Source: a virus. From it: a stretch of DNA of 37,116 nt. Shown here one piece after another: positions 15,615 through 17,230 of this stretch; position 1 is the first letter of the stretch; every line of letters begins with the position of its first letter. The position numbers and the translations under genes are program-made. The stretch lies in UHGV virus genome UHGV-0272165; one strand, written 5' to 3'. The notes beneath the pieces were generated by a model, which saw only the letters and a list, made by a program, of their open reading frames with translations, ran no database searches and had not been told where the DNA came from.

Positions 15615-15794
15615 TCAGGTTGATGACTCTTTCGCGCCTTCAATCAGTGACTGCTTCAGCAATTCGAGTGTGCCAATCGCCTCGCATAAACTGATTTCAC
15701 CATCATAATCATGAATAACGCTTTCAAGCCGCTCGTATAGCTCTTGAGTAATTGGGAATTTCTTCTCCTTACCCAAATTGATTACGCGGCTCAC
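15615..15794 (-). CDS. Possible small ORF (59 aa, GTG start) not in the supplied track
   Basis: Open frame from GTG at 15794 to TGA at 15615, found by hand translation; weak SD. Could be a frameshifted continuation of the upstream 80-aa ORF. Confidence 0.25.
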   Translation of the reverse strand: MSRVINLGKEKKFPITQELYERLESVIHDYDGEISLCEAIGTLELLKQSLIEGAKESST

Positions 15795-15795
15795 A

Positions 15796-16038
15796 TCATG
15801 CTCCGGTGGTGAACAGGTCTAACGCTTCCTTCGATTTACGCACCGCTTCGATAGTGCGGGTCGTGATATCCGAATTAGCGCCGCCTGACTGGAAGTGAAT
15901 TTTGAATAGCTCAAGCTTCAGCTCGTCAGTGCCAATGAATTGAAATGCTTCTTCTGCGGCTGCGTTCTGGTTCATGACCAGCTTGTAAATCTCTAACTGG
16001 AATTTCTGTTCTTCAGTCATGGGAATAATCTCTGCCAT
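15796..16038 (-). CDS. Hypothetical small protein (80 aa)
   Basis: ORF with SD-like ACGGAG 7 nt upstream of ATG; precedes the packaging genes. Confidence 0.5.
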   Translation of the reverse strand: MAEIIPMTEEQKFQLEIYKLVMNQNAAAEEAFQFIGTDELKLELFKIHFQSGGANSDITTRTIEAVRKSKEALDLFTTGA

Positions 16039-16205
16039 TGTTGGCTCCGTTTATCCGTTAAAAGGGATATCAGTTAAGTTATCCCGTGTAGGGTATAAGC
16101 CATTATCAAAGCCACTCAGTAAGGAATGGCTTTTGTAATGGCAATAAAAAGCCACGCATATGCGGGCTTGTTGGGTTAATACATCATTGAAAATTTATCT
16201 TTTGA

Positions 16206-16937
16206 TTAATCATTTCGTGTCAAAATCGCATCAATCACTGGCTGAATAGGAAACCCGATGCCAATGCCTGGATTTGCATTAGACTCTAATAATTTTACTA
16301 TAGTGGCTAGTGACTCAGCATAGAGTGAATTAATCCTAGCAAAGTCAACACCACCAAACCTCACATTCACTTGCATATTAGCCAACTCCCTCAAGAGATC
16401 TTTGGCCTGATCAGCAATGGCGTCGGCTTCATCTTTGCCAGGGTATCTTCTCTGCGTGACGATACCCACCACATTCCCAGTTTCAAGATTAACGATAGGG
16501 CCGCCAGAATTACCACCATTTACCATCCCATCGATAGAAAATTTTCCATCTTCAAGCGGCGAAGAGACTATTGCTTCGCCTATTAATAATTGAGGAAAAC
16601 CGTGAGGATACCCAGCAAAAATCAATCGTAATCCCCTGGAAGGGGTGAAATTGGTACAAGGTTGCAATACTACTCTGTCGGGAGGTAATGATTCTGAAAT
16701 GCGCATGACAGCAAAATCATATTGAATATCAACATGAATAATCTGGGCCAAAATATTCTGTCCAGATTCAGTTATTAGAGTGGCCGGGCCAAGTATCCGG
16801 CTATTTTGCAGATCAACCAAGGGTTTTACAACGTGAAAGTTTGTGATCACCAAATCCTCTCGTAAAAAACTAAAACCACTTCCGCAAGATGTACCTGCAA
16901 TGACCTGAAATGTTGCATTGGCTAAGTGTTGATGCAT
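16206..16937 (-). CDS. Trypsin-like (S1 family) serine protease, cytoplasmic, no signal peptide
   Basis: His (ITNFHVV), Asp (DFAVMRI) and Ser (GGNSGGPIV) motifs in S1 order; strong SD (GGAGG 7 nt upstream); lower GC than flanking phage genes. Confidence 0.8.
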   Translation of the reverse strand: MHQHLANATFQVIAGTSCGSGFSFLREDLVITNFHVVKPLVDLQNSRILGPATLITESGQNILAQIIHVDIQYDFAVMRISESLPPDRVVLQPCTNFTPSRGLRLIFAGYPHGFPQLLIGEAIVSSPLEDGKFSIDGMVNGGNSGGPIVNLETGNVVGIVTQRRYPGKDEADAIADQAKDLLRELANMQVNVRFGGVDFARINSLYAESLATIVKLLESNANPGIGIGFPIQPVIDAILTRND

Positions 16938-16994
16938 CGTAATCCTCCGATTCTGGTAAGTGGAATTTCATAATGAACTCATATCCCAGAATAA

Positions 16995-17011
16995 TTGATA
17001 TGTCACATCAA
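16995..17011. promoter_or_regulatory. Operator-like palindrome in the protease upstream region
   Basis: TTGAT-N7-ATCAA inverted repeat (TTGATATGTCACATCAA) in the 98-bp spacer between the 64-aa ORF and the protease gene. Confidence 0.35.
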
Positions 17012-17035
17012 TTCACGCTCGAAATATTCAATACA

Positions 17036-17230
17036 TCAATTTGTCTTTATCATTTTTTGAGCTGTCTGTAACTTGAGATCAAGCGTGCATGATTCACCTT
17101 CAATGCTGCTTTTAACAACTACCAGCTCTAGCACATCGCCTTCCTTAGGTATTTCATTTTCCACAAACCAGTTCTTAGCTTCTGAGATGGAGTTAACAAC
17201 CGAGATAAAACCATGGCCTTCTTTTTTCAT
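17036..17230 (-). CDS. Small hypothetical protein (64 aa) upstream of the protease gene
   Basis: ORF co-oriented with and 98 bp upstream of the protease; low GC; no recognised motif. Confidence 0.5.

Follow-up and report, generated by a model that had tools for sequence, protein, structure and literature searches.

What does a serine protease with no apparent means of leaving the cytoplasm do between the lysis and the packaging genes of a prophage? The question is raised by the virus genome UHGV-0272165, whose 37,116 nucleotides, referred to below as the window, represent an integrated P22-like prophage of Escherichia coli with a LacY-family host gene at the right end. In the slot between its Rz/Rz1 spanin genes and its small terminase gene lies a 243-aa open reading frame (ORF) for a protein with a complete trypsin-type catalytic triad, and a small co-oriented ORF, here called the partner, precedes it. 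An initial annotation of the window had described both as part of an accessory cassette, and we find that the two genes are the cargo of a discrete moron. The protease is predicted to be a cytoplasmic member of the HtrA-type family, and the pair appears to match no named system. We tentatively read the locus, in what we regard as a possible and nearly probable interpretation, as an unnamed protease-effector defence moron, whose latent protease would serve superinfection exclusion or abortive infection.

The protease matches Pfam Trypsin_2 (5e-18), and its triad, His35 (in TNFHV), Asp74 (DFAV) and Ser144 (GGNSGGP), is invariant in 40 homologues, which bears out the triad that had been read from the motifs. 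Its AlphaFold (AF2) model (mean predicted local distance difference test score, pLDDT, 86.5) adopts a two-barrel trypsin fold. The closest fold and profile neighbours are HtrA-family (MEROPS S1C) domains: Mycobacterium tuberculosis HtrA1 (7e-15), DegS-deltaPDZ, HTRA1, MucD and the RsgI9 S1C domain (about 1e-12; Foldseek and profile searches), and DegQ. With HtrA, DegS, DegP and DegQ, the protein shares the trypsin fold, the His-Asp-Ser triad, the GNSGGP motif and a last strand of the G-I-G-I-G-F type. Unlike these enzymes, it has no signal peptide, anchor or PDZ domain, is predicted to be cytoplasmic, contains a two-helix hairpin and is borne by a prophage. No PDZ domain was matched in Pfam or NCBIfam, and in the AF2 model the chain ends at residue 243, past the last barrel strand and one helix. 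The highest 19-residue Kyte-Doolittle mean is 1.07 in the protease, which has no N-terminal hydrophobic region, and 0.73 in the partner. Since neither protein has a hydrophobic segment, both should lack a signal peptide and a transmembrane helix, in agreement with the initial annotation of the protease. Taken together, the protease is by its sequence a cytoplasmic serine protease of the S1C (HtrA) type with predicted activity.

The part of the chain beyond the catalytic core had been described as a C-terminal extension of about 70 aa. Alignment and the AF2 model lead us to reject this description: residues 168-220 form a hairpin (helix-turn-helix) of about 55 aa that is inserted after the strand following the catalytic serine, and the chain then continues into the conserved HtrA-type last strand, NANPGIGIGF (N220, N222 and G224 are invariant), and a terminal helix. 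Placed by alignment, the hairpin would sit about where loop L2 is found in HtrA. Variability within the family is concentrated in residues 41-70, the hairpin (165-220) and the terminal helix. Crude Nei-Gojobori estimates of dN/dS are 0.1-0.25 for the whole gene, fall to 0.05-0.15 in the catalytic core and reach 0.2-0.5 in the variable segments; the protease gene is under purifying selection and, with its catalytic residues intact, is predicted to be functional.

Homologues of the protease fall into 108 clusters in a set of 5.8 billion proteins, nearly all of full length (240-255 aa), and an exhaustive profile search of 1.84 billion cluster representatives returned 58 at E≤1e-30. In a few homologues from marine Gammaproteobacteria, among them those of Agarivorans (L105) and Photobacterium (L106), the chain has an extra C-terminal SEC-C zinc motif, which in PADLOC also matches the E2/E1-E2 and PDC-S12 models.

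How far, then, does the acquired segment extend? The initial annotation had drawn a cassette from 15615 to 17230 and counted into it the two small ORFs that follow the protease. A blastn comparison with phage Sf6 moves both limits: the backbone match (about 95%) stops at window position 16139 and restarts at 17444, and because homology breaks off and returns at these two points, we define the insert as the interval between them (Table 1). Both downstream ORFs, which encode a DUF2560 protein and a phrog_3546 protein, are conserved backbone genes, about 95% common to Sf6 (gp67/gp68), HK620 and others, and a four-gene cassette is therefore rejected. The insert is missing from Sf6, HK620 and other relatives, which have other cargo in its place. 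Sibling phages of the P22-like and lambdoid kinds carry diverse cargo at this site (Rha, KilA-N, a GIY-YIG nuclease, annotated anti-CRISPRs or Sf6 gene 66), which supports its description as a moron slot. The low GC content noticed earlier is also confirmed: the insert has 0.416, against 0.486 and 0.497 in its flanks. Only 3.8% of equal-sized windows have a GC content as low, and apart from those that overlap the insert all of them lie in the tailspike end.

The insert consists of the two-gene cargo, an o-spanin remnant, a spacer and a terminator. It is discrete, absent from close relatives and deviant in GC, and has a terminator of its own, as expected of a moron in the Hendrix/Juhala sense. 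Its whole anatomy, including the conservation of the terminator, the variable presence and the retention in decaying prophages described below, is that of a moron. Similarly to the morons and exclusion genes of lambdoid phages (lom and bor of lambda, HK97 gp15, sieA and sieB of P22, and BstA), it is an insert of deviant composition within a late or structural operon, with its own terminator, at a module junction and with variable presence among mosaic relatives. It differs from them in its content, a protease and a small partner, and its promoter is only putative.

The o-spanin remnant records how the cassette travelled. A 77-aa lipoprotein, which matches phrog_1275, 'Rz-like spanin' (1.6e-32), shares 63% identity with it in a C-terminal stretch of 35 aa (E=6e-13). 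In four other loci (L005, L010, L026 and L042) the spanin gene is complete, with its end about 40 nt ahead of the small ORF; the piece in the window, in the stretch of ~120 nt that precedes the small ORF, is a dead fragment with an in-frame stop before it. In its wider extent (17262-17489) the fragment is interrupted by an in-frame stop, and the phage has an intact Rz/Rz1 of its own. The presence of a foreign spanin remnant beside the small ORF therefore indicates that, when the cassette passed from phage to phage, part of the adjacent gene went with it. Besides marking this recombination history, the fragment could harbour a cassette promoter.

At its other end, the cassette is closed by an intrinsic terminator immediately 3' of the protease gene. 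A GC-rich hairpin followed by a T-run is found in 17/20 distinct cassette variants, with stem sequences that vary and pairing that is kept, so that compensatory changes appear to maintain the structure. The terminator in the window has a predicted folding energy of -9.8 to -11 kcal/mol; at -9.8, with one internal mismatch, it is the weakest of the copies. By analogy with the moron concept developed for lambda and HK97, such a terminator would act only on transcripts of polymerase not modified by the antiterminator Q. A terminator placed right after the protease is useful only in the absence of Q-antitermination, and therefore suggests that the prophage itself expresses the gene. A sub-threshold Rfam match to the mir-458 precursor (window 16086-16159, plus strand; 24.6 bits against a gathering threshold of 59), which overlaps the hairpin in reverse complement, is rejected as almost certainly due to chance.

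The spacer between the two genes contains the Shine-Dalgarno sequence of the protease and is conserved as well. Across 26 cassette variants its mean pairwise identity is 0.78-0.80, as high as that of coding sequence, without codon periodicity. It contains a palindrome that looks like an operator, with no binding protein evident, and a weak promoter-like match, GTGAAT-17-TATTCT, which is a consensus match only and is present in 16/26 variants. The palindrome overlaps the -35 hexamer, the spacer and the first -10 base of this match. A candidate antisense promoter in the same spacer (plus strand, 16967-16995) was rejected, its -10 element not being conserved among the variants. RNA folding of the spacer revealed no unusual stability (z=+0.38 against shuffles), and Rfam returned neither a non-coding RNA (ncRNA) in the spacer nor a retron ncRNA in 15500-18000.

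Does the protease belong to the virion instead? Co-occurrence of the pair across unrelated prophage backbones, proposed earlier as a check, is indeed observed. The pair is present in at least four backbones, namely P22-like, lambda-like (Nu1/GpA), one with a PBSX-type TerL and one with DUF2280 and a Mu-F-type head protein. The carrier prophages have several unrelated holin/endolysin sets, and comprise four lysis cassettes and four terminase types; the gap between partner and protease remains constant (98-113 nt), and the position remains after the lysis and before the terminase genes. The head assembly systems of these backbones are unrelated, and they have their own maturation protease or none, some encoding S49/ClpP proteases. 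A role as virion or maturation protease, which had been judged unlikely from the start, is therefore rejected. In one prophage backbone (L005-L009, 5857-6495), the protease gene is followed by PF18894 ('PhageMetallopep') and DUF2280 genes ahead of the large terminase, so that two putative peptidases adjoin.

The pair is rare and is found in prophages. It was found, always as one chromosomal copy, in 29 of the 5,426 complete E. coli genomes, and no homologue at E≤1e-8 turned up among 50,697 records of isolated phages. Decayed prophages in which lysis or packaging genes have disappeared (L004, L006, L096 and L101) still have both genes intact. Insertion sequence (IS) elements occur at some loci: an IS3-family element disrupts the protease gene and leaves the small gene intact in E. 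coli PSS-11 (L092 1536-3882), another lies beside the cassette in E. coli PK6 (L001 2249-3417), and IS3 elements stand on both sides of the Reinekea homologue (L015).

What is the role of the small ORF? Conservation by codon position (0.84/0.83/0.65) reveals the third-position relaxation of coding sequence, and we consider the ORF truly coding on this ground. The initial annotation was thus right about a real, co-oriented gene, whereas its length of 64 aa is specific to the window allele: the family has 59 aa, and in the window an A-run that is longer by 1 nt moves the stop codon and adds five residues. Partner homologues form 73 clusters, all from Enterobacterales. The protein is acidic (pI 5.3), as is the protease, and its AF2 model (pLDDT 84) comprises a short helix and a long beta-hairpin (strands 34-44 and 47-56). 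Foldseek against the PDB gave no match at E<1 (best E=1.3), and none was obtained in Pfam, PADLOC, PHROGs or NCBIfam. In one IMG/VR prophage (L035 5689-5913), an unrelated 74-aa ORF, whose sole match is the C-terminal part of phrog_6978, takes the partner's place upstream of the protease.

The gene order, with a small ORF ahead of the gene for a larger enzyme, suggests a toxin-antitoxin-like addiction pair, in which the protease would be the toxin, the small protein its cognate inhibitor, and the prophage the stabilised entity. One partner allele, indexed in 1,181 blocks of an assembly collection, has the protease next to it in 10/10 sampled places; the acidic partner could dock through its beta-hairpin by beta-augmentation; and in PSS-11 it is the protease that is disrupted and the small gene that survives. 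However, the partner is dispensable to the family. Among 33 IMG/VR family loci it is present in 24, missing in seven and unassessable in two that are truncated upstream, and it is missing from every non-enterobacterial homologue examined. In the seven partner-less loci (of 31 assessable), the protease mostly follows the lysis genes directly or comes after a different small ORF. Typical type II toxin-antitoxin operons have overlapping or closely abutting genes, a layout that the conserved 98-113-nt spacer does not resemble. Moreover, no co-evolution of the two proteins was seen, their pairwise identity matrices correlating with r=0.13, and partners 97-98% identical to that of the window are linked to proteases only 52-54% identical. 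As roughly one in four prophage loci lacks the partner and the two proteins do not co-vary, a strict toxin-antitoxin-like or obligate two-component arrangement is weakened, and we regard an addiction pair as very unlikely.

Partner and protease alleles, by these comparisons, reassort freely. Such reassortment agrees with the half-length megablast matches and with the higher DNA conservation of the cassette's left half. A left block (small gene, spacer and the first ~40 protease codons) and the terminator on the right may act as homology arms, between which divergent protease bodies would be swapped from prophage to prophage.

Comparison with defence catalogues places the protease near several effectors and within none of their systems. 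PADLOC v2 matches it to the retron XI reverse transcriptase-protease (1e-12), PDC-M35A (3e-5) and LmuA (5e-3), each time partially and in the protease domain only; the PDC-M35A match is weak and limited to residues 17-112. For nine relatives the best matches include Avs1b and PDC-S45, over the catalytic domain and often from the N-terminal helix. The retron type XI match covers profile positions 346-490 of 506, which is the protease part, while the window protein, at 243 aa, has no reverse transcriptase and no retron ncRNA in its vicinity. In contrast to Lamassu with an LmuA protease, the neighbours here are spanin, DUF2560 and terminase genes, with no SMC or LmuB protein and a weak LmuA match; in contrast to Avs1b, there is no STAND NTPase as partner or fusion. 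Full-text literature searches, which did not cover Brenes & Laub 2025, returned no mention of trypsin-like defence genes in prophages, of hotspots at the lysis/terminase junction or of these proteins by RefSeq accession. As far as sequence comparison goes, the protease thus resembles defence-effector proteases and belongs to none of those systems, and the pair, as previously proposed, matches no named system. The similarity to the retron XI, LmuA, Avs1b, PDC-M35A and PDC-S45 proteases suggests a shared logic, that of a latent cytoplasmic protease effector.

The distribution of distant homologues is patchy. Sparse full-length relatives with 30-45% identity occur in Limnohabitans, Pirellulales, Anaerolineae, Deferribacteraceae, Acidithiobacillus, Lysinibacillus, Defluviitaleaceae, a deltaproteobacterium, Aminicenantes and Reinekea, and on a plasmid of the haloarchaeon Salinigranum. 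Some have neighbours of the defence type. In a deltaproteobacterial metagenome-assembled genome (MAG; L086 649-1398), a 34%-identical homologue is part of a type I restriction-modification (R-M) operon, hsdM-protease-hsdS-(PDC-M14B-like)-hsdR. In a Pirellulales MAG (L081 4959-6735), a ThsB-like TIR gene lies 59 nt upstream of a 43%-identical homologue, and the two may represent an alternative pairing of the protease with a second gene. Other neighbours are PDC-S19 (DUF3644; L090), a DUF559/MTES-type nuclease (L089) and, beside the L080 homologue, a gene pair that we take from its sequence to be a HigBA-like toxin-antitoxin. One homologue follows an ORC/Cdc6-like ATPase, with an IS3 element interrupting, and another belongs to an island immediately 3' of smpB (identified by eye), presumably in the ssrA region.

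These surroundings also bear on a third kind of role, in which the cassette is lysogenic-conversion cargo with no bearing on phages, or a selfish passenger. Such cargo would alter proteostasis, stress tolerance or the turnover of regulators, for example by cleaving the repressors of co-resident prophages in the manner of an anti-repressor, or would hitch-hike at a recombination-prone junction. Numerous distant homologues stand alone in metabolic surroundings or beside an IS element, in some genomes the protease is flanked or interrupted by IS elements, regulators of the Rha, KilA-N or ANT type are frequent in the slot, and selection on the protease is of the ordinary purifying kind. Conversely, the very low prevalence and extreme allelic diversity within one species fit conflict genes better, some homologues have the defence-type neighbours just described, and sequence and fold searches found no known regulator-cleaving S1C protease of such architecture. 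We consider this explanation quite unlikely.

The defence-effector reading is the best supported, on the combined strength of the moron anatomy, the scattered occurrence across phyla and the neighbours of the defence type that some homologues have. Its closest mechanistic analogy is Lit of the e14 prophage, a latent cytoplasmic protease that is activated by a late phage protein (the T4 Gol peptide), cleaves EF-Tu and aborts infection; Lit, however, is a zinc metalloprotease of unrelated fold. From the features above we infer expression in the lysogen, latency and activation, an anti-phage role and a role for the partner, in the following way: (I) the protease would be expressed from the repressed prophage; (II) its latency would be due to the hairpin insertion, to the small acidic partner or to both; (III) a cue from a superinfecting phage would switch it on, by analogy with the peptide- or substrate-driven allosteric activation of HtrA proteases; and (IV) the active enzyme would cleave phage or essential host proteins, with exclusion or abortive infection as the outcome. 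Regulatory or recognition surfaces may be provided by the hairpin and by segment 41-70. The partner would be an accessory modulator (inhibitor, adaptor or bait), dispensable and not an obligate subunit.

Several observations weigh against a defence moron. The late operon surrounds the cassette and runs in the same direction, which makes expression late in the lytic cycle certain but leaves expression in the lysogen uncertain, and a standard scan of the coding strand found no convincing sigma-70 promoter, only weak consensus matches. The slot also holds annotated anti-defence cargo, the anti-CRISPRs of phage Huey. The PADLOC matches score below the generic Pfam Trypsin_2 model (46 vs 66 bits) and may therefore reflect the shared fold only, and no catalogue model spans the protease or the partner at full length. 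The defence association of the distant homologues is anecdotal, and several of them are surrounded by ordinary metabolic or housekeeping-type genes. Finally, no positive selection was seen in any region of the protease (crude Nei-Gojobori omega <1 throughout).

The first of these observations are also those expected if the protease had a late-lytic role for the phage, in counter-defence or host takeover. It would then be made from the Q-antiterminated transcript and would cleave host proteins to the advantage of the phage, either defence sensors or effectors that respond to terminase, portal or capsid proteins, or host factors that limit lysis or packaging. The cassette comes right after the spanin genes, in the orientation of the late operon, in essentially every prophage locus, a strong independent promoter was not found, and cargo annotated as anti-CRISPR shares the slot. 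Terminase and portal are classic triggers of Avs-type sensors, and their genes lie just downstream. If the cassette serves the phage in this way, it would encode a rare phage-borne protease acting on host proteins. Yet a conserved terminator would have no effect on a Q-antiterminated transcript, the pair is intact in remnants that cannot run a lytic cycle, and the positions of some homologues, inside the type I R-M operon of a host or adjacent to a TIR gene, are not those of anti-defence genes. The absence of homologues from the isolated phage genomes also speaks against it. We regard a late-lytic role as unlikely.

Returning to defence, a more specific and somewhat unlikely version of the model would make the stand-alone HtrA-like protease of ~245 aa a minimal immune module by itself. 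Its hairpin and residues 41-70 would directly sense a phage protein and release the catalytic site, and enterobacterial prophages would have added the modulator and would swap protease bodies between the homology arms. If the module protects lysogens, it would represent a very compact form of protease-based prophage immunity, built on a cytoplasmic HtrA relative that has no PDZ domain and carries its own regulatory insertion. Lambdoid phages would then have a defence hotspot with cassette-style allele exchange at the junction of their lysis and packaging genes, and a function would be at hand for a small, sparse family that spans distant bacterial phyla and a haloarchaeon.

Table 1. Positions in the window of the protease cassette, its internal elements and its neighbours.
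Feature	Position	Strand	Remarks
Holin	19037-18714	minus	
Endolysin	18730-18254	minus	
Rz	18257-17790	minus	
Rz1	18037-17831	minus	intact, embedded in Rz
Conserved ORF	17802-17650	minus	50 aa; phrog_11822, Sf6 gene 65 type
Whole accessory insert (moron)	16140-17443	minus	replaces Sf6 gene 66
o-spanin gene remnant	17262-17378	minus	non-coding; 3' end of foreign Rz1-type gene
Small partner ORF	17230-17036	minus	64 aa
Spacer between partner and protease genes	16938-17035	minus	98 nt
Weak promoter-like match	17016-17011 and 16993-16988	minus	in spacer; GTGAAT, 17 nt, TATTCT
Palindrome	17013-16993	minus	in spacer; AATTGAT-N7-ATCAATT
Protease Shine-Dalgarno	within 16938-17035	minus	GGAGG
Protease	16937-16206	minus	243 aa
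Codon of His35	16835-16833	minus	catalytic
Codon of Asp74	16718-16716	minus	catalytic
Codon of Ser144	16508-16506	minus	catalytic
Intrinsic terminator	16141-16169	minus	3' of protease; hairpin 16169-16149, T-run 16148-16141
DUF2560 gene	16038-15796	minus	80 aa; Sf6 gp67/gp68, HK620 hkbM/hkbN homologue group
phrog_3546 gene	15794-15615	minus	59 aa; Sf6 gp67/gp68, HK620 hkbM/hkbN homologue group
Small terminase	15597-15103	minus	gp3 type; large terminase and portal beyond

All genes around the cassette are on the minus strand. The P22-like parts of the window comprise the head-binding domain of the tailspike, P22 coat and scaffold proteins, the portal, the gp3 small terminase, the Q antiterminator and an S24 repressor. 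In the late-operon leader, between the Q antiterminator and the holin, are genes for tRNA-Thr(UGU) and tRNA-Asn(GUU) (19280-19435, minus), and the same pair is present in the related prophages L001 and L092. The lowest GC content of the window (0.34-0.40) is found in positions 1-1750, in the distal tailspike gene beyond the conserved P22 head-binding domain, which fits a horizontally exchanged receptor-binding module.

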